Virus genome (UHGV): UHGV-0281096
Reading direction: 5' to 3' (one strand)
Length of the DNA stretch: 24,424 bases
Origin: a virus
The notes under the pieces were generated by a model that saw only the letters and a list, made by a program, of their open reading frames with translations, did no database searches and was not told the DNA's origin. Positions within the stretch are counted from its first letter, which is position 1. Each line of letters opens with the position of its first letter. Below, piece after piece: positions 3,487 to 23,684 of the stretch. Position numbers and translations under genes: made by a program.

Positions 3487-3810
3487 ATGAAGATGCCAGA
3501 AAAAAATGACCTGTTAGCCGCCATTCTCGCGGCAAAGGAACAAGGCATCGGGGCAATCCTTGCGTTTGCAATGGCGTACCTTCGCGGCAGATATAATGGC
3601 GGTGCGTTTACAAAAACAGTAATCGACGCAACGATGTGCGCCATTATCGCCTGGTTCATTCGTGATCTTCTCGACCTCGCCGGACTAAGTAGCAATCTCG
3701 CTTATATAACGAGCGTGTTCATCGGCTACATCGGTACTGACTCGATTGGTTCGCTTATCAAACGCTTCGCTGCTAAAAAAGCCGGAGTAGAAGATGGTGG
3801 AAATCAATAA
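3487..3810 (+). CDS. S: Holin S (class I, dual-start S107/S105)
   Basis: 107 aa, [10 protein letters not shown]..., three hydrophobic segments; near-identical to lambda S. Confidence 0.9.
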
Positions 3811-4270
3811 TCAACGTAAGGCGTTCCTCGATATGCTGGCGTGGTCAGAGGGAACTGATAACGGACGTCAGAAAACCAGAAATCATGGTTATGACGTCAT
3901 TGTTGGCGGAGAGCTATTCACTGATTACTCCGATCACCCTCGCAAACTTGTCACGCTAAACCCAAAACTCAAATCAACAGCAGCCGGACGTTACCAGCTT
4001 CTTTCCCGTTGGTGGGATGCCTATCGTAAGCAGCTTGGCCTGAAAGACTTCTCTCCGAAAAGCCAGGACGCTGTGGCACTGCAACAGATTAAAGAGCGTG
4101 GCGCTTTACCGATGATTGATCGCGGTGATATTCGTCAGGCTATCGACCGTTGCAGCAATATCTGGGCTTCACTGCCGGGCGCTGGTTATGGTCAGTTCGA
4201 GCATAAGGCTGACAGCCTGATTGCAAAATTCAAAGAAGCAGGCGGAACGGTCAGAGAGATTGAGGTATGA
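3794..4270 (+). CDS. R: Endolysin R (lytic transglycosylase)
   Basis: 158 aa, [24 protein letters not shown]...; near-identical to lambda R; overlaps S end. Confidence 0.9.
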
Positions 4271-4734
4271 GCAGAGTCACCGCGATTATCTCCGCTCTGG
4301 TTATCTGCATCATCGTCGGCCTGTCATGGGCTGTTAATCATTACCGTGATAACGCCATCGCCTACAAAGAACAGCGTGATAAAAAAGTCAGTGAGCTGAA
4401 GCAGGCGACCGCCACCATTACTGACATGCAGCAACGCCAGCGTGCTGCTGATGCACTCGATGCTAAATACACGAAGGAGTTAGCTGATGCGAAAGCTGAA
4501 AATGATGCTCTTCGGCGCAAGCTTGATAATGGTGGCAGGGTGCTCGTCAAAGGAAAATGCCCTGTGCCATCCTCAGCCGAAACCTCCAGCGCCTCCGGCA
4601 TGGGCAATGATGCCACCGTCGAACTCTCTCCAGTTGCTGGACGAAACGTTCTCGGTGTCCGGGACGGAATTATCCGCGACCAAACAGCACTGAGAACGCT
4701 TCAGGAATACATCAGGACGCAATGCCTGAAATAA
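4267..4734 (+). CDS. Rz: Rz i-spanin
   Basis: 155 aa, N-terminal TM segment then coiled coil; ATGA overlap with R stop; lambda Rz-like N-terminus. Confidence 0.85.
4487..4693 (+). CDS. Rz1: Rz1 o-spanin lipoprotein, embedded in +1 frame of Rz
   Basis: 68 aa [19 protein letters not shown]... with lipobox VAGC and Pro-rich stretch; AAGGAG 7 nt upstream of ATG. Confidence 0.8.
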
Positions 4735-4766
4735 TTTTTTTTGCAAATCACAAAGTCCATTTAATG

Positions 4767-4790
4767 AGCCTCGCGATGCGGGGCTTTTTG
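4767..4790 (+). terminator. Rho-independent terminator after lysis cassette
   Basis: AGCCTCGC-GAT-GCGGGGCT followed by TTTTT. Confidence 0.6.
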
Positions 4791-4796
4791 CAATAA

Positions 4797-4821
4797 ATGC
4801 GTACCGCAACGCATGTTTTTT
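4797..4821 (+). terminator. Second tandem terminator
   Basis: ATGCGT-ACCGCA-ACGCAT followed by GTTTTTT. Confidence 0.5.
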
Positions 4822-16750: not shown

Positions 16751-18100
16751 ATGGCTACGTGGCAACAGGGTATTAATTCTGGTGGTTTTCTGACTGGAAT
16801 TGGTGCGCAAAATGAGAATGCGCCAAAGGCAAGCGACATTAACGCAACGCTTGGTCTGATTCGCGAAAACAATGAACTGGCTCGATCAGGTGCAAATAAC
16901 GTTGGTCTGACCGCGTTACGTGGTCTGGCTGGAGTTGCTGATATTTACAATCAGGAACAGCAACAGAAAGCTATTAGTGCGTTCAATAAGGTTCACGCTG
17001 ATGCATGGGCTTCTGGTGATCCATCGGGACTATTTAAGTTTGCCCAGGAAAATCCAGCGTTTGTTGCACAGGCACAACAGGCGTTTTCCGGTCTTAATGA
17101 GCAGCAACGCAACGATATGGGCGATTTAGCCATGAGGGCTAACGTCGCTCTTTCTCAGGGACCGGAAGCCTACAGTAAATTCATTACTGACAACAAGGAC
17201 AGGTTAAATCGCGTGGGGGCGAATGCTGATTGGATGATTCAGACAGGTATCCAGAATCCAGAGCAGCTATCACACATGCTGACTACTATGTCTCTCGGTG
17301 CGCTTGGACCAGAAAAGGCGTTTGCTGTTCAGGACAAGATGGTTGGTCGCCAGCAGGAGCAGCAAAGAATTAACGAAACCATTCGCAATAATGACATGAC
17401 GAATGCGAGGGCTATTAGGGGGCAGGATCTTTCCTATAAGGCTCAAATGGCAAGACTGAATCACGACAAGTATGTGTTTAAGCAGTCACAGGCGGCCCTT
17501 GAAAGAGCAGGACAACTTCAGGATATGGATGTTTTGTCTCTTAACTCACAGATAGCAGCGACGGGAATTGATCCTCTAACCGGTAAAGCTGCAACGTCAG
17601 CCAGAATGTCTCAGGCTAAGAGATGGCTTGATGGCAACCATAATTACAACAATGCGTTGATTACTGGTGAGCGAGGGATAGAGAAAATAGATTCTTTGCT
17701 TGGTAAGAAGGAGCTTGAAGGTATCGGTCGCTTCGAAGGAAGAAATATAGATGGCTTCACAAGTGCTGAAGGGCTTGCAAACCGTAATGCGATAGAAGAA
17801 TTAAAGTCGGGTGCGTTTGTCCAGAACGTGCAGATTATGCGAGGTATGGGGAGCCTCTCCAATGCTGAAGGCCAAAAACTGGAAAACCTGATCGCGAAAC
17901 TCGATATAACACAGCCTGAAGAGGTCGTCAGAAAACAGTTATCTGAAATCCGATCGCAATATTCTGTATTTCAAAAGGTTGCAGCAAGGGAGGCTGAATC
18001 AATGGGATATAGTTCATCAGGTTATGACACATATGTTAGTGAGCGAAAATCAGGAAGCGACAGCAATAAGTCCGGTTTCTCGTCTTTATGGGGTGATTAA
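16751..18100 (+). CDS. Ejection protein gp20-like
   Basis: 449 aa; synteny and composition. Confidence 0.75.
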
Positions 18101-20268
18101 TGGCTAAAGCATGGAAAGATGTTATCGCTTCTCCACAGTATCAGGCGTTAACTGAAGAACAGAAAGCACAGGCTCAAGCGCAATATTTTGATGAGGTTGT
18201 TGCCCCTAAGGCTGGTGACAAATGGGCTGAAGCAAGAGATCAGTTTTATGCAGCATACCCTCCGCCTCAGCAGCAGAAAGAAGAACCATCATTGATGCAA
18301 CAAGCTGGTGATTGGCTCACAGGTGGTCAAAGTGCAGGGCAAATTGCAGAACAGGCTGGTCGTGGTCTGGTAAACATACCATTTGACGTATTGCAGGGTG
18401 GCGCAAGTCTGATTAATGCAATCAGCCAGGGGCTTGGCGGCCCCAAGGTTTTGGATGATGTTTATCGCCCTGCCGAGCGACCGACAGACCCTTACGCGCA
18501 AGCCGGTGAAACAATTGGTGGGTATCTCCTGCCAATTGGCACAGCGGCAAAAGCTGCTGGAGCGACAGCAAAGCTCGCTGGAGATATCGGTTCCGCCGGA
18601 AACATGATTGCAGGTTCTCTTGCTGATGCTGCAAATCAGGAGGGCGATTTTGCACAAAATGCTGCCATTAACGGTGGTATCAATATTGGTGCTCAGGGGA
18701 TACTTTCTGGGGCTGGAAGGATCTTAACCTCTAAATCACCTCAAGTTCTTGGTGGCGGGGCAATAAATTCCGCTGCTGATGTTTCGAAAATGGCAAAGTC
18801 TGGTACAGGAAGAGAGATTATTGCCAGACAGTCAGCTAATGTGTCAGACGAAATAGCAAAAGCAGCAGATACTGCTGGAATAGATATCAACGCATTAACT
18901 CCTGGCATGAGATCAGGTAGTCGTGGTCTTGCTCAGGCGGAGGGGATTCTGGCGTCAAAGCCCGGAATTACACAGGATGCACACACCAAAGCATTCAGTG
19001 AAATAGAGTCGAAATTTAACTCAGCATTGGATGAGTTTGGGGCTGAAGCAGGAACTGCATCAGAAAAAAGTGCAGCCATAAAACAAAGGGTTTTGGCAAG
19101 TATTGATAAAATGAAAAATTCAGAAAAGGCCGCATGGGATAGCGTCCGCTCCACGATGCCTGACGCAAAGGCCAGAATGTCAAACCTGAACGCTACAATT
19201 CAGGGTGATATTTTGGCCGGCATGCCGCTAACTCCTGAGATGAAACAATTCGCATCTGCTTATGCTAAAACTAGTAAAAAAGGAATCACGTTTGATGCCA
19301 TGAAGGCATGGCGAAGTAAACTTGCTGACGCAGAGCAGAAGTATATAAGGTCTGGTGAGGCAAATACGGCAAGGCGCATGGCTGAGCTTCGTGATGCAGC
19401 AACGGAAGATATGCGCATAATGGCTCAAAATGGCGGTTTTCTTGATGACTGGCAAAAAGCTAATGATCTGTCAAAAGCAAGATTTACAGCACAAGAACAG
19501 GCTGAAGCAGCGTTTGGTAGAGACCTTGCAACTGATCAGTTGGTAACTAATGGCTCTAAGGCGTTGCAGGGTTCAGCAAAAAGTGGAACAGGTCAGTTCC
19601 ATAAAATAATAAGCGCCCTACCTGAGTCGGAACGCGCGCCAGCAATTGCATCAATATTACAAGATGCGGTATCGCAAGGGGTACGCGGAGGTAAGTCTGA
19701 AGAGGCTGGAATTAAGCATATCGCGACTATTCTTACCCCACAAAACGTGAAGGCAATTAGTCGATATTCTCCAGAGCTTGGTAGGATTGCCAGGGGGTTT
19801 GGAGAACTTGCAAGAGCAGCAACAAAGCCACTTCGATATGTTGAACAAACAGGGCGCTCTATGCCAGCCATTAGCACTCTTGAGAATGGCCTTCATCCAG
19901 TTTTAGAGAGCGTATTGTCTGGCGCTTTTCCAACCGCTGGCGCTATCGCAGGGTTCTCTGGAGGAGGTGTTATTGGAGCAATAGTGGGTGGCGCTGCAGG
20001 TGGAGCAATTGATGCAATAGCAAAAGGATCGATAGCGAAATTATCCGCAACCAGAAGTGGTCGTTACGCTATTGAAAAGGCTGTTCAAGAGGCGACAAAG
20101 GCAGTTAAAGTTGGGGCAAGTGATGGCGCATTAGCGGCGGCGGAACGCAGATTTATGGCAAATAAGGCCGCCGTAAAAGCAATTCGCGATGCACTAGGAA
20201 ACGAAGAGTTCCAGCGTTTGTCGAGGGCTGGGATTGTGGCATCGCTAAGCGGAATGGCACAGGATTGA
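18100..20268 (+). CDS. Ejection protein gp16-like
   Basis: 722 aa; last of three ejection genes; Gly/Ala-rich C-terminal segment ([36 protein letters not shown]). Confidence 0.7.
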
Positions 20269-20285
20269 GGTGACGCCATGGATGG

Positions 20286-20735
20286 CTATTTTTTAAGGTA
20301 ATAATCATCAAAATCGCAAGAAGCGGATATCACAGAACTTGAATCCATAGAAAAAGACAGGGTTTCGCATGCCTTTCCGGCCTGATGATATGCATGGATA
20401 TCACCGGATACATATCCTCCTGTAGAAAACAACGATTTTTCACCGTTTTTTTCTACAAGAATGTGCTTATCTGAATCATTAATAAACCAAATGGAAATAG
20501 AGTGACTTTCGCCAAGGTCTGTTCTATTGAACACCTTAGGTTGGGTACCCTTGACAGCATTTTCGGCTCGCATAATCAGTTCAGCGCTTTTTTTGCTATT
20601 TTTTTGTTCTGTATAGATTTTGTCTGCCACAAAATAAACAATGGCAATGGCTAACAAAGATAGGGAAATCAGCAATGCCTTTTTAATCAATTTTTTGGCA
20701 TCCCTGTAAATCTCAACTGATAATTTTTCACTCAC
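20286..20735 (-). CDS. Membrane-anchored protein of unknown function (candidate superinfection-exclusion-type moron)
   Basis: Minus-strand ORF; likely start GTG at 20735 with AAGGAGG 5 nt upstream (track ATG 20789 has no RBS); single N-terminal TM segment ALLISLSLLAIAIVYFVADKIY; about 110-aa C-terminal domain with two Cys; locally AT-rich. Confidence 0.5.
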   Translation of the reverse strand: MSEKLSVEIYRDAKKLIKKALLISLSLLAIAIVYFVADKIYTEQKNSKKSAELIMRAENAVKGTQPKVFNRTDLGESHSISIWFINDSDKHILVEKNGEKSLFSTGGYVSGDIHAYHQAGKACETLSFSMDSSSVISASCDFDDYYLKK

Positions 20736-20810
20736 ACCAACCTCCTTAGTTTTGAGCAGGATACCAGATGATGTATGGAGAGGCATCATCTACTGGTGAT
20801 AGAACGATGA

Positions 20811-20839
20811 TTGCAGATTGATATTACGATCTGTACACT
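20811..20839 (+). promoter_or_regulatory. Candidate sigma70 promoter for the toxin-antitoxin-like operon
   Basis: TTGCAG - 17 nt - TACACT about 30 nt upstream of ATG 20872; moderate match only. Confidence 0.3.
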
Positions 20840-20871
20840 TCCAGTAGAACCGTGTGTTCTCTGGAGGCGAT

Positions 20872-21525
20872 ATGGACAACATCTACATAGCTAGTTTTGG
20901 TGATATAGACATTCGTTTTGTTAATGTCGACGATGATGTGTTTGTGTCTCAAGGGGATTTTGTCCGTGCAATGGAGTCGTGTCTCACTGATGATATGAAA
21001 CACATAGCTGGTATTTTCATCAGTGGTGGTGTGAGAATTGTTGGCGATTCTAGTGATAGCCGCTCTGCAATACTTGGCGACAGTCTAATTGGGCCAGCTA
21101 TTCATTTTCATGCGGTAGGCAATATTCTTACCTCATTGGTTGAAATGAGTAATGAGGAAAACCCCTCTTTAAGAGAGAGTTGTTATCGCATGAATAGCTT
21201 ATTGCAGTGGTACACGATAGCTTTATCCAAGGCCGATGAGTATTTTGGTCGTGATGTTGTTGACTTGCTATCTTCAGTAAAAAGGCGTCTTGATCGACTT
21301 AACGCTCCATATACCGTAAACGTCCTTCATGATGGGGGTGTTTGGGTTGCAACATGCGATGAGCTTGGATTAGTTACAGAAGCTCCAGATTATGAATCTC
21401 TTACTGAAAGAGTGTGGGATGTCGCTGGAGATATGCTGGTTGAGAATGGTATAGATCAAGACGTAGAAAGCCTGCGCTTTTCCTTCGTTCAGGAGCAGGT
21501 GTCTGATGACAGGATGGCGCTATAA
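20872..21525 (+). CDS. Two-domain protein: N-terminal Bro-N-like domain fused to C-terminal HicB-fold (UPF0150) antitoxin-like domain
   Basis: ATG 20872 with GGAGG upstream; N-terminus IASFGDIDIRFVNVDDDVFVSQGDFVRAM resembles Bro-N pattern; C-terminal YTVNVLHDGGVWVATCDELGLVTEAPDYESLTERVWDVAGDML fits HicB N-domain pattern. Confidence 0.6.
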   Translation: MDNIYIASFGDIDIRFVNVDDDVFVSQGDFVRAMESCLTDDMKHIAGIFISGGVRIVGDSSDSRSAILGDSLIGPAIHFHAVGNILTSLVEMSNEENPSLRESCYRMNSLLQWYTIALSKADEYFGRDVVDLLSSVKRRLDRLNAPYTVNVLHDGGVWVATCDELGLVTEAPDYESLTERVWDVAGDMLVENGIDQDVESLRFSFVQEQVSDDRMAL

Positions 21526-21528
21526 GAA

Positions 21529-21726
21529 ATGGGGCAGGGGCTTTATCCAGAACTGAAAGAGTTATTGTTGTCCTACAACTGTTATTTTGTGCGTCAGGGT
21601 AAAGGTAGCCATGAGATATGGCGAAGCCCTATCACGAAAAAGGCATTTAGCGTTCCATTTACTATAGTTTCAAGGCATACGGCTAACGCAATTCTTCGCC
21701 AGGCAGGAATAAACAAGAAAATTTAA
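21529..21726 (+). CDS. HicA-family toxin (predicted mRNA interferase)
   Basis: 65 aa; ELKELLLSYNCYFVRQGKGSHEIWRSPITKKAFSVP...ANAILRQAGI matches HicA/YcfA-like consensus including conserved GSH; starts 3 nt after upstream stop. Confidence 0.7.
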   Translation: MGQGLYPELKELLLSYNCYFVRQGKGSHEIWRSPITKKAFSVPFTIVSRHTANAILRQAGINKKI

Positions 21727-21750
21727 CCCACCGTCAGGTGGGTTTTTTTA
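21726..21750 (+). terminator. Rho-independent terminator after the HicA-like gene
   Basis: ACCCACC-GTCA-GGTGGGT followed by TTTTTTT. Confidence 0.65.
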
Positions 21751-21781: not shown

Positions 21782-21967
21782 ATGACCATAGAAGAACGTC
21801 TGAACAACATTGAGTTGAATCAAACCCTGCTTGACCAGCGACTTTCAGATCTTGAGCTTAAAGATCTAGATGTGCAAATATCAGAAGCAGAAGCCAAGCT
21901 CTCCAGCTTAAACCACCGCAGGAAGCAAATCCGCGACAGAATTACTCGTGGACGCGGAGGCTGTTAA
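21782..21967 (+). CDS. Small coiled-coil protein, unknown function
   Basis: 61 aa; AAGGA RBS; heptad-like Leu spacing, basic C-terminus ending GRGGC. Confidence 0.4.
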   Translation: MTIEERLNNIELNQTLLDQRLSDLELKDLDVQISEAEAKLSSLNHRRKQIRDRITRGRGGC

Positions 21968-22044: not shown

Positions 22045-22581
22045 TCAAACAACCCACCAGTTTGCCTGATTGGATACCAGCCTTGCAGTTTTTATGGAAT
22101 TAATTATGCCATGCTCAAGAGCCTTGTTAGCATCCAAAATGGTCGAGTCTGCTATCAGGGATGCCCACCTAATATGGGTTCCGATGTCGATATTGAACGT
22201 CTCAACGAAGCGATCAAGATCGTTATCGAGGCATTTCCCGTACTCTCTCAATCTGGCATGGTCGGCGGCTGGGGAGGCAAAGCACCATAATAGAGGATGT
22301 AACAGGAATCTTGATAATGGGTTTGCGAAACGTTCTGAGCCAGCCAGGAAAACGATATTAGCTATGGATTCAACATTGCTTATGTTGTGAGTTCTAACGG
22401 TAACAGGGAGTGACTTAAGAAAGTTATACGCAGTAAAGCCAGCGGCAGTTTCCCCTCCCTGACTTGATATATGGATATTTAATTCAGTTGCGCCTTGAGA
22501 TAATGCGGTGAGACAGTGGTTCTGAAGTTGCCCAACAGTGGCAGTGTTAACGGGGCATAAGAAATGAATTGTGTGCAGCAT
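22045..22581 (-). CDS. ClpP-fold (S14-like) serine peptidase
   Basis: 178 aa; hand alignment to E. coli ClpP core: IHISSQGGETAAG vs YINSPGGVITAG, ESIANIVFLAG vs ASMGAFLLTAG (Ser), FLLHPL vs MIHQPL (His), ADSTILDANKALEHG vs RDRFLSAPEAVEYG (Asp); TAATG overlap with mnt stop. Confidence 0.7.
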   Translation of the reverse strand: MLHTIHFLCPVNTATVGQLQNHCLTALSQGATELNIHISSQGGETAAGFTAYNFLKSLPVTVRTHNISNVESIANIVFLAGSERFANPLSRFLLHPLLWCFASPAADHARLREYGKCLDNDLDRFVETFNIDIGTHIRWASLIADSTILDANKALEHGIINSIKTARLVSNQANWWVV

Positions 22582-22835
22582 TATTTATCATCCTTGCCAT
22601 AAATCTTTTTAAGTGTCTCAAACACAACGGCCTTGAACTGCTCTGCTTGCTGATCAGCCAAGCGTTCAGCTTCGTCTCGATAGCCTGCACTCGGTGATGG
22701 CTTTGAGAGAGCATCCTGAACGATTTGTAATAACTCAGAGTTCATTGACCTTCCGTTAGCCTCTGCTCTTAATTTCAATTTTTCTCTTACTTCCAAAGGC
22801 ATACGGAAGTTAAAGTGCGGATCGTCTCTAGCCAT
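22581..22835 (-). CDS. mnt: Mnt repressor (Arc/MetJ ribbon-helix-helix)
   Basis: 84 aa MARDDPHFNFRMPLEVREKLKLRAEANGRSMNSELLQIVQDAL... very close to P22 Mnt as recalled. Confidence 0.85.
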   Translation of the reverse strand: MARDDPHFNFRMPLEVREKLKLRAEANGRSMNSELLQIVQDALSKPSPSAGYRDEAERLADQQAEQFKAVVFETLKKIYGKDDK

Positions 22836-22858
22836 GCCATCACTCCAAGTTAGTATCT

Positions 22859-23116
22859 CTAACTTTCGTCTTTATTGTTGCTATACATGCATTTCAACTT
22901 CTCAACATCATGTTCAAGATCTATCAATCGTGATGCTATAGTTGCAAGGTCTAGTGCTTGAATGTGTTTATTTTTTTCGGTCCATGCTTCAAGTGCCGCG
23001 ACCATCTCAGCATTTAATGAACGAGAATTAGCCTCAGCCAGTTCAATAAGACGTTCCTTTATCTCTACAGGAAGCCTCAGATTCACTTGAGGGTTTTTGT
23101 ACTTACGATCAGACAT
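22859..23116 (-). CDS. Arc/Mnt-family RHH protein, paralog 2
   Basis: Start ATG 23116 (M3 of track ORF); PQVNLRLPVEIKERLIELAEANSRSLNAEMV is an RHH motif; divergent helical C-terminal region. Confidence 0.65.
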   Translation of the reverse strand: MSDRKYKNPQVNLRLPVEIKERLIELAEANSRSLNAEMVAALEAWTEKNKHIQALDLATIASRLIDLEHDVEKLKCMYSNNKDES

Positions 23117-23133
23117 CGGCACATCCTGAATAA

Positions 23134-23373
23134 TTATTTACCATACATGGTCTTTAGCGTCTCAAGTAGCGCCTCTTTGAATTTATCAGCTTCTTGGTTA
23201 GCGAATCCTTCAAGTGAGCGAGAGCCATCAAGATTATCAACATGTTTTTGAAGGATAAGCACGATCTCTGAGTTCATTGATCTGCCGTTTTTATCCGCTT
23301 CTTGCTGAATGCGTTTCTTTAAATAGTCTGGAATCCTAATCCCCAATGGACTGATATCTCTTGCACCTTTCAT
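23134..23373 (-). CDS. Chimeric RHH repressor: Arc-like N-terminus with Mnt-like C-terminus
   Basis: Start ATG 23373 with AGGAGG 5 nt upstream; N-terminus MKGARDISPLGIRIPDYLKKRIQQEADKNGRSMNSEIV parallels the arc product; C-terminus GFANQEADKFKEALLETLKTMYGK parallels Mnt C-terminus. Confidence 0.7.
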   Translation of the reverse strand: MKGARDISPLGIRIPDYLKKRIQQEADKNGRSMNSEIVLILQKHVDNLDGSRSLEGFANQEADKFKEALLETLKTMYGK

Positions 23374-23481
23374 TTCTCCTCCTGCACGCTGTGCATAGCT
23401 ACACAGTGTAGGCAAAAAAATTTTGACTTTAAATAAACACGGTGTAGTATTTAGTTATCACGGTGTAGCAAGTGAGGGGAA
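23374..23481. promoter_or_regulatory. Divergent Pant/Pmnt-like promoter-operator region
   Basis: TTGACT (23423-23428) - 16/17 nt - TAGTAT; direct repeats CACGGTGTAG at 23438-23447 and 23459-23468, degenerate copy CACAGTGTAG 23402-23411; imperfect palindrome CTGTGCATAGCTACACAG 23389-23406. Confidence 0.45.
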
Positions 23482-23622
23482 ATGAAAGTTAGAGACATCG
23501 CTCCATTAGGGATTCGTATCCCGCCAGAGATTAAAGAAAAATTGAAGGAAAAGGCTAAGGAGGAGGGCAGGTCTTTAAATTCAGAAATAGTGCAGCGTCT
23601 TATTCGCAGCCTAAAAAGTTGA
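23482..23622 (+). CDS. arc: Arc-like repressor (RHH)
   Basis: Not in ORF track (<60 aa). Hand translation [46 protein letters not shown]; GAGGGGA RBS; same family as P22 Arc, sequence diverged. Confidence 0.7.
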
Positions 23623-23651
23623 AGCCCCAACTGCGGGAACAGTCAGGGCTT
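23621..23651 (-). terminator. Hairpin in arc-ant spacer acting as minus-strand terminator (candidate 3' end of a sar-like antisense RNA)
   Basis: GAAGCCC (23621-23627) / GGGCTTC (23645-23651); on the minus strand followed by AACTTTTTAGG. Confidence 0.35.
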
Positions 23652-23684
23652 CGGTTGTCAGTAAATCCGTGGAGAAAAACCAAC

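Follow-up and report, generated by a model that had tools for sequence, protein, structure and literature searches.

What kind of toxin–antitoxin (TA) unit does the hicB-hicA gene pair of the virus genome UHGV-0281096 encode, and what might the extra N-terminal domain of its antitoxin contribute? The first-pass annotation of this genome, of which a stretch of 24,424 nucleotides (nt; hereafter the window) was analysed in full, described a protein with a HicB fold at its end only, behind an N-terminal domain of Bro-N-like signature, and a HicA-family toxin gene downstream; it read the arrangement as an inverted, fused architecture with reversed gene order. We conclude that the pair is a member of Class 7 hicBA in the classification of Gerdes 2024 (mBio 15:e03293-23, PMC10865869), in which a C-terminal HicB fold would neutralise a HicA RNase toxin, with a probability of roughly 0.85 that covers the identity of the pair and the mechanism of toxin and C-terminal domain, the role of the N-terminal domain being kept separate. 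The features on which the argument draws are the following (aa, amino acids).

20808 to 21748, plus strand: mobile hicBA cassette of promoter, hicB, hicA and terminator, delimited by homology boundaries with the prophages L029 (Serratia) and L002 (E. coli)
20811 to 20839, plus strand: putative sigma-70 promoter, with −35 TTGCAG at 20811–20816, a 17-nt spacer and −10 TACACT at 20834–20839
20863 to 20867, plus strand: Shine-Dalgarno sequence GGAGG for hicB, read from the sequence and invariant in a four-way upstream alignment
20872 to 21525, plus strand: hicB, ATG at 20872, stop codon at 21523–21525, 217 aa
20872 to 21300, plus strand: hicB N-terminal domain, aa 1–143, an acidic domain of alpha+beta type whose fold is remotely Bro-N/KilA-N/APSES-like
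21301 to 21525, plus strand: hicB C-terminal domain, aa 144–217 and stop codon, DUF1902 or partial RNase-H HicB fold, the predicted toxin-binding part
21529 to 21726, plus strand: hicA, ATG at 21529, stop codon at 21724–21726, 65-aa HicA toxin, an RNase of dsRBD type (dsRBD, domain that binds double-stranded RNA) by Pfam, PHROG, His motif and homologues
21725 to 21749, plus strand: intrinsic terminator AACCCACC-GTCA-GGTGGGTT with a T run after it; it overlaps the stop codon of hicA

The map of open reading frames (ORFs) and the sequence bear out the basic layout proposed earlier—a 217-aa ORF, a 65-aa ORF that begins after a gap of 3 nt, and a strong terminator—and the order of antitoxin then toxin was confirmed as well. 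An alternative hicB start, GTG at 20854, would give a protein of 223 aa; the homologues all use the ATG. The pairing of the two genes is not a matter of chance, because in 26 of 26 related loci, taken from viral and genome collections, the HicB homologue has a HicA homologue downstream at a distance of 1–22 nt.

Pfam searches, which the first-pass annotation had proposed as a check, placed both proteins above the family cut-offs. The assignment of the 65-aa protein to the HicA family holds: it matches HicA_toxin (PF07927) over residues 8–61, scoring 41.2 bits where the cut-off is 27 (E = 1.9e-10), and PHROG 353, annotated “toxin” (E = 2.7e-16). Its residue H28, within the motif GKGSHEIW, is invariant in 17 homologues, and a profile of the HicA subfamily aligns it with His36 of S. 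pneumoniae HicA (5yrz_B, motif GKGSH), a residue essential for RNase activity and toxicity in that protein (5yrz). Only the profile reached 5yrz; searched as a single sequence against PDB sequences, HicA found no match. The 92%-identical protein WP_001674386.1 was modelled as a canonical dsRBD (Gerdes 2024, PMC10865869). Over 63 aa, the window protein is 65% identical to Klebsiella HicA 31H, a toxin in E. coli whose effect is neutralised by 52P, a DUF1902 antitoxin of 85 aa (Horesh et al. 2020, NAR 48:4357, PMC7192599). By comparison with these homologues, the window HicA would be a His28-dependent RNase toxin that halts growth.

The HicB fold is restricted to the C-terminal end of the 217-aa protein, as had been proposed: Pfam DUF1902 (PF08972) matches residues 147–208 only, within the last ~70 residues and with 9 residues left to the stop codon (score 40.4 bits, cut-off 22, E = 3.3e-10), and the remainder of the protein has no other Pfam match at E ≤ 1, Bro-N included. 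PHROG 3448 agrees with this assignment, DUF1902 was matched in 23 of 27 family members and never in the N-terminal part, and the modelled C-terminal domain resembles solved HicB/TTHA1013 structures in three dimensions. Searches of Pfam and NCBIfam for a helix-turn-helix (HTH) or ribbon-helix-helix (RHH) domain in HicB gave no match, and NCBIfam as a whole matched neither HicA nor HicB. The Klebsiella antitoxin 52P is 49% identical to residues 142–217 of the window protein. By analogy, we infer that the C-terminal HicB fold sequesters HicA; the mechanism of toxin and C-terminal domain has experimental backing in close relatives because of the 31H/52P results.

Gerdes sorted HicA contexts into 14 classes, among which Class 7 hicBA (“long hicB”) is characterised by a hicB gene upstream of and closely linked to hicA and by HicB proteins of 216–233 aa that carry no recognisable DNA-binding domain (PMC10865869). 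The type pair of this class is Salmonella WP_000065196.1 (217 aa) and WP_001674386.1 (65 aa), their genes listed at a distance of 3 (Table S1 sheet 7, PMC10865869), and its HicB-HicA interface has been modelled (PMC10865869). The window pair has the same properties—217 aa, a 3-nt gap and no DNA-binding Pfam family—and shares with the type pair its gene order, its 217/65-aa sizes, a HicB of two domains that has the DUF1902/HicB fold at its C terminus, and the lack of an HTH or RHH match. The HicB proteins are ~71–72% identical and the HicA proteins 92%; the type HicB is essentially the protein (P0010) of Salmonella phage SEN22, and in the comparison of the window with SEN22 (L001, 3535–4389) the toxin is much better conserved than the antitoxin (92% against 72% aa identity). 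Moreover, the Giesbergeria and Photorhabdus pairs of Gerdes's table were recovered independently in our searches (as L027 and L028), at 41–46% identity to the window protein. Because of this shared layout and the full-length homology to listed members, we place the window pair in Class 7.

It follows that the inverted, fused layout with reversed gene order, although present as described, is not new: it is the layout of Class 7, already catalogued in 2024, and the hicBA order is the rule in Classes 2 and 5–8 (PMC10865869). The claim of architectural novelty thus does not hold, and current understanding is not overturned by these findings. What they add is a phage-borne example of a TA class so far catalogued in silico; the residual interest lies in the N-terminal domain, whose fold assignment is modestly corrected here, and in the natural deletion variants described below.

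Comparison with other hicBA and hicAB systems sets the window pair in relief. The Klebsiella pair 31H/52P, which belongs to Gerdes Class 2 (short hicBA), has a toxin of the same HicA subfamily, the same antitoxin fold and the same hicB-hicA order, whereas its antitoxin of 85 aa is without the 143-aa N-terminal domain. Canonical HicAB systems (E. coli K-12 HicAB, Y. pestis HicA3B3 and B. pseudomallei HicAB; Classes 3/4) and S. pneumoniae HicBA likewise combine a HicA dsRBD RNase, relying on a single catalytic His, with a HicB whose partial RNase-H fold covers the active site. In canonical HicB, however, the toxin-binding fold is N-terminal, an HTH or RHH domain is C-terminal, and autoregulation proceeds via a palindromic operator; in the window HicB, by contrast, the HicB fold is C-terminal, HTH and RHH domains were not matched and no operator is evident, and the gene order is reversed with respect to E. 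coli hicAB. Because of the C-terminal position of the fold and the missing HTH/RHH match, the protein was not placed in Classes 3/4. Class 5/6 hicBA pairs come closer, with an extra domain first, the HicB fold second and the hicB-hicA order; their extra domain is a recognisable Phd/YefM DNA-binding domain, whereas that of the window protein is an unrelated acidic alpha+beta domain of 143 aa.

The N-terminal ~145 residues make up a domain of their own, different from the usual HTH or RHH DNA-binding domain of HicB, in agreement with the first-pass annotation; the Bro-N-like label given there survives only in part, being weakly supported as a remote similarity of profile and fold and falling as a statement of Bro-N membership. 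A profile of residues 1–143 searched against 1.84 billion representative proteins returned 30 matches at E ≤ 1e-3, nearly all of them HicBs of 216–234 aa, and the same profile found no match among PDB sequences at E ≤ 10. No Pfam family matches the domain in any of 27 diverse members; for Bro-N and KilA-N there was no match at E ≤ 10 in the window HicB or in 26 relatives, while a true Bro-N protein from prophage L002, used as a positive control, scored 71.7 bits. In the structure model (predicted local distance difference test score, pLDDT, 82), the domain consists of a beta-beta-beta-alpha-alpha unit, a disordered loop at residues 54–64 and three long helices. Foldseek comparison with viral models gave nothing below E = 1e-3, and its top 50 entries were mostly Bro-N, BRO, antirepressor and KilA-N proteins.

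Alignment with hhalign of the N-terminal domain to a Bro-N profile that we built gave P values of 2.4e-4 to 8e-4 and probabilities of 25–43% over 37–52 aligned residues, in a register in which the family residues F9, G10, R15 and D29 coincide with the F, G, R and D that are hallmarks of Bro-N. In control comparisons, the best of 40 column-shuffled alignments reached P = 0.017, and unrelated profile pairs ranged from 0.013 to 0.7. Profile and model together thus point to a weak but consistent fold relationship with Bro-N/KilA-N/APSES domains, remote in nature and short of family membership. What the domain appears to share with Bro-N (PF02498), KilA-N and APSES domains of phage antirepressors and of viral and fungal regulators is the N-terminal beta-beta-beta-alpha arrangement, the F/G/R/D residues in register and the neighbours at fold level; Bro-N antirepressors are, in addition, phage-borne and found in the immI neighbourhood, as hicBA is here. 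Unlike Bro-N, it lacks a Pfam match, aligns over those 37–52 residues only, has a three-helix extension and is fused to an antitoxin fold instead of an Ant or KilA-C domain. It is also far more acidic: its net charge is −9 in the window and below zero in 24 of the 27 members, with a median of −7, compared with a median of +1 for 56 Bro-N domains. A basic stretch, KRRLDR at residues 137–142, is conserved in HicB. Should the domain be Bro-N/KilA-N-like, this would supply a concrete and cheap hypothesis, DNA binding versus sensing of a trigger.

Natural variants suggest that the domain is dispensable. Three prophage loci (L013, L015 and L016, at ~3900–4410 in each) share the promoter, the first ~12 codons, the C-terminal domain and an intact hicA with the long form of Photorhabdus (L008), and are without the ~437 nt that encode the N-terminal domain. 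Because these deletion variants retain an intact hicA, the domain is dispensable in nature and would not be needed for neutralisation. It is also autonomous, as two stand-alone versions exist. One, of 155 aa (L034, 2450–2917), directly follows the gene for a CI/LexA-like S24 repressor on a phage-like contig; the other, of 146 aa (L033, 3001–3441), is chromosomal with no hicA nearby. The stand-alone gene of L034 overlaps a ParB_N gene, and a short hicBA lies 2 kb away.

The expression signals of the pair appear to be its own. The putative promoter core TTG[C/A]AG-17-TA[C/G]A[C/A]T is kept in three unrelated contexts—the window, SEN22 and Serratia—whose flanks differ, the Serratia copy having TACAAT as its −10 element. 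A promoter scan did not list TTGCAG-17-TACACT, and the sole site that it found, at 20695–20724, lies within the neighbouring gene; from the sequence comparison we prefer the former as the putative cassette promoter. The terminator has a stem of 8 pairs, 5 of them G-C (21725–21732 with 21737–21744), a 4-nt loop and a T run that reaches 21749, and it travels with the cassette, being kept in SEN22 and Serratia. A search for an operator upstream of hicB found no convincing conserved palindrome, inverted repeat or direct repeat across the contexts compared; RTGAT motifs 11 bp apart, present in the window and SEN22, were considered and rejected, as they are not kept in Serratia. Rfam identified no RNA family inside the cassette and only a sar RNA further downstream.

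The window represents a P22-like (Lederbergvirus) prophage with phiv205-1, CUS-3 and HK620 as relatives. In it, hicBA lies between ejection gene 16 (18100–20268) and the immI region, recognisable by several Arc/Mnt genes and the sar RNA match. The pair occupies the same site in Salmonella phage SEN22, where its genes are annotated “hypothetical” and “toxin”. A sister E. coli prophage (L002, 20AR0300) is 100% identical to the window up to 20772 and resumes at 21710; in the same slot (3911–4778) it carries a SocA/Panacea-domain protein (147 aa, Pfam E = 2e-24) and, 4 nt later, a 139-aa protein without a Pfam family, which we regard from their sequences as a candidate Panacea antitoxin and its candidate toxin partner. 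In a Serratia prophage of siphovirus type (L029), an 84%-identical HicB and a HicA lie between tail genes, and homology with the window spans exactly 20808–21747, at 77%. The swap in L002 and the limits of homology with Serratia define a unit of 0.94 kb with its own promoter and terminator, which moves between prophage types. The gene 16-immI slot of P22-like prophages, with alternative TA cassettes sharing one terminator, is a place to seek more defence cargo.

This shared terminator is the 26-nt sequence AACCCACCGTCAGGTGGGTTTTTT (window 21723–21748), which ends hicBA here and the Panacea cassette in L002 (~4782–4806). In L007 it is present on both sides of hicBA, at 3628–3653 and downstream of hicA. 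The sequence may be a recombination joint for cassette exchange.

Long-form copies with readable flanking genes are all located in a prophage or a phage-like contig. The cassette itself is rare: it was found in 1 of 50,697 phage records (SEN22 only) and was absent from 5,426 complete E. coli genomes and from 72,556 plasmids. A 243-aa HicB relative with a C-terminal extension (P0018; L031, 6001–6732) has no hicA downstream and is an orphan long HicB; its neighbour is a BrnT/BrnA pair, and the surrounding region, phage- or satellite-like in character, holds VapE-like and pRha genes.

Taken as a mechanism, the sequence suggests that one weak conserved promoter would drive hicB and then hicA, that the 3-nt gap would couple their translation and that the strong terminator would end the unit. 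Free HicA, a small basic RNase of dsRBD fold using His28, would cleave cellular RNA and stop growth; for this step, toxicity is extrapolated from the 65%-identical homologue and the requirement for His from S. pneumoniae HicA. HicB's C-terminal domain would neutralise HicA, as the 49%-identical short HicB does, and the 143-aa N-terminal domain would be an accessory module not needed for that purpose. This type II TA cassette is moron cargo, placed in the variable slot that separates gene 16 from immI, and the benefit to the prophage is likely to be superinfection exclusion by abortive infection, prophage retention or both, the two not being mutually exclusive. The system lends itself to cloning and dissection, thanks to the natural variants without the N-terminal domain and to a cassette that is compact (0.94 kb) and has a promoter and a terminator of its own.

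Of the roles that the N-terminal domain could have, the likeliest, which we nevertheless hold only tentatively and at less than even odds, is that of a protein-binding input or sensor that makes the release of HicA depend on a signal from phage or host. In its favour are the acidity and autonomy of the domain, fold neighbours of antirepressor type, a promoter region without a conserved operator and the position in a prophage cargo slot. The fused sensor-antitoxin defence system CapRelSJ46 offers a likeness by analogy only, in that a domain linked to an antitoxin senses a phage protein and frees the toxin; it is unlike the window pair in that toxin and folds are unrelated and that it is a single polypeptide. 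A more specific version, in which the domain would be a diverged Bro-N/antirepressor-type trigger sensor that frees HicA in response to a protein of a superinfecting phage or to the state of the immI/antirepressor circuit of the resident prophage itself, is unlikely as stated; if true, the unit would be a prophage-borne, sensor-coupled abortive-infection system and its HicB the first antitoxin known with a Bro-N-like input domain. What probability remains falls to a scaffold, an extra mask for HicA or a degenerate second HicB fold.

The principal competing account is a classical autoregulated TA system without sensing, in which the N-terminal domain would be the DNA-binding and dimerising domain that this class of HicB otherwise lacks, repressing the cassette promoter and replacing a C-terminal HTH or RHH as the N-terminal Phd/YefM does in Classes 5 and 6. 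That the characterised extra domains in HicB are all DNA-binding (PMC10865869), that the promoter travels with the cassette, that the basic stretch K137–R142 is conserved, that there is precedent in every other HicB class and that APSES/KilA-N folds are DNA-binding in kind would all fit. The net negative charge, so different from that of Bro-N, does not, and neither do the promoter region, with its lack of a repeat conserved across contexts, the variants that keep the same promoter and an intact hicA after losing the domain, or the HicBs of Classes 1 and 2, which do without any DNA-binding domain (PMC10865869); we regard autoregulation as possible but doubtful. Several points weigh against our own interpretation. 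Acidity argues against DNA binding, yet the local basic patch at 137–142 is possibly compatible with it; the polarity of the natural variants, deletion from a long form versus insertion into a short one, rests on the ~12 retained N-terminal codons; PADLOC has no defence model that matches HicA or HicB; and Class 7 has been described in silico only (PMC10865869). Further, Gerdes reports Foldseek matches to DUF1902 in the N-terminal part of HicB as well as in its C-terminal half (PMC10865869), which were not reproduced here, and a DUF1902 likeness of the first beta-beta-beta-alpha unit is possible. On that account the N-terminal domain would be another HicB/DUF1902 fold in degenerate form, and the protein a tandem antitoxin able to bind a pair of HicA molecules or to form a pseudo-dimer; the domain does open with a beta-beta-beta-alpha unit like that of the HicB fold, and the Bro-N profile aligns weakly to the C-terminal domain too (P = 0.013). 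Direct alignment of the N- and C-terminal domains with hhalign, however, gave P = 0.03–0.04, probabilities of 1–2% and alignments out of register, and Pfam places DUF1902 in the C-terminal part alone. A DUF1902 fold in both halves, the one respect in which our description departs from that of Gerdes—the architecture itself being identical and the N-terminal part looking Bro-N/KilA-N/APSES-like here—is therefore not supported by our hhalign and Pfam tests, and a tandem antitoxin seems improbable.

A different question is what the cassette as a whole is for. It could be an addiction or stabilisation module that kills cells losing the prophage region, with no part in anti-phage defence and with an N-terminal domain that only tunes the stability of HicB; type II TAs carried by mobile elements are well known to stabilise them post-segregationally, and both the confinement of long-form copies to prophages or phage-like contigs and the PADLOC result would suit it. 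Integrated prophages, though, would gain little from addiction of the plasmid type, the slot swaps other cargo, including the Panacea-domain pair, as is typical of superinfection-exclusion or defence morons, and addiction and defence need not exclude each other, so that we consider addiction alone rather unlikely. That the ORFs are decayed or non-functional remnants is very improbable. The rarity of the cassette and the existence elsewhere of an orphan HicB without hicA could be read in this sense, but both ORFs are full length and keep the residues invariant in the family, including the catalytic His, the ribosome-binding site, promoter and terminator are intact, and across the family the N- and C-terminal domains have diverged at a similar pace, as selection would lead one to expect.

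Around the cassette, the window holds further genes of the immI region. A gene for a ClpP-family peptidase-like protein of 178 aa (within 22045–22835, minus strand; Pfam CLP_protease E = 2e-11, PHROG “head maturation protease”) has its start 1 nt into the stop codon of a gene for an 84-aa Mnt/Arc-like repressor (Arc E = 1e-26, and Repressor_Mnt). Situated in the immI region and away from the head genes, this coupled repressor-peptidase pair could be another cargo or TA-like module. Four consecutive ORFs encode Arc-family RHH proteins (22581–22835, 22859–23122 and 23134–23415 on the minus strand, 23482–23622 on the plus strand), and a match to the sar antisense RNA (RF00262, 95.6 bits) lies at 23617–23684 on the minus strand, such that 22581–23684 looks like an expanded P22-type immI region. 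On the other side, directly after gene 16 and at the position of P22 sieA, a gene at 20286–20789 (minus strand) encodes a 167-aa protein with one predicted membrane span and no match in Pfam, PHROG or PADLOC; it has homologues at ~89–91% nucleotide identity in other E. coli prophages, and its first codons fall within the swapped segment. Immediately after the cassette terminator, a 61-aa coiled-coil ORF (21782–21967, plus strand; PHROG 7586, E = 1e-43) is common to phages Emek and Kapi1 and to many E. coli prophages, and is therefore part of the backbone and not of the cassette.

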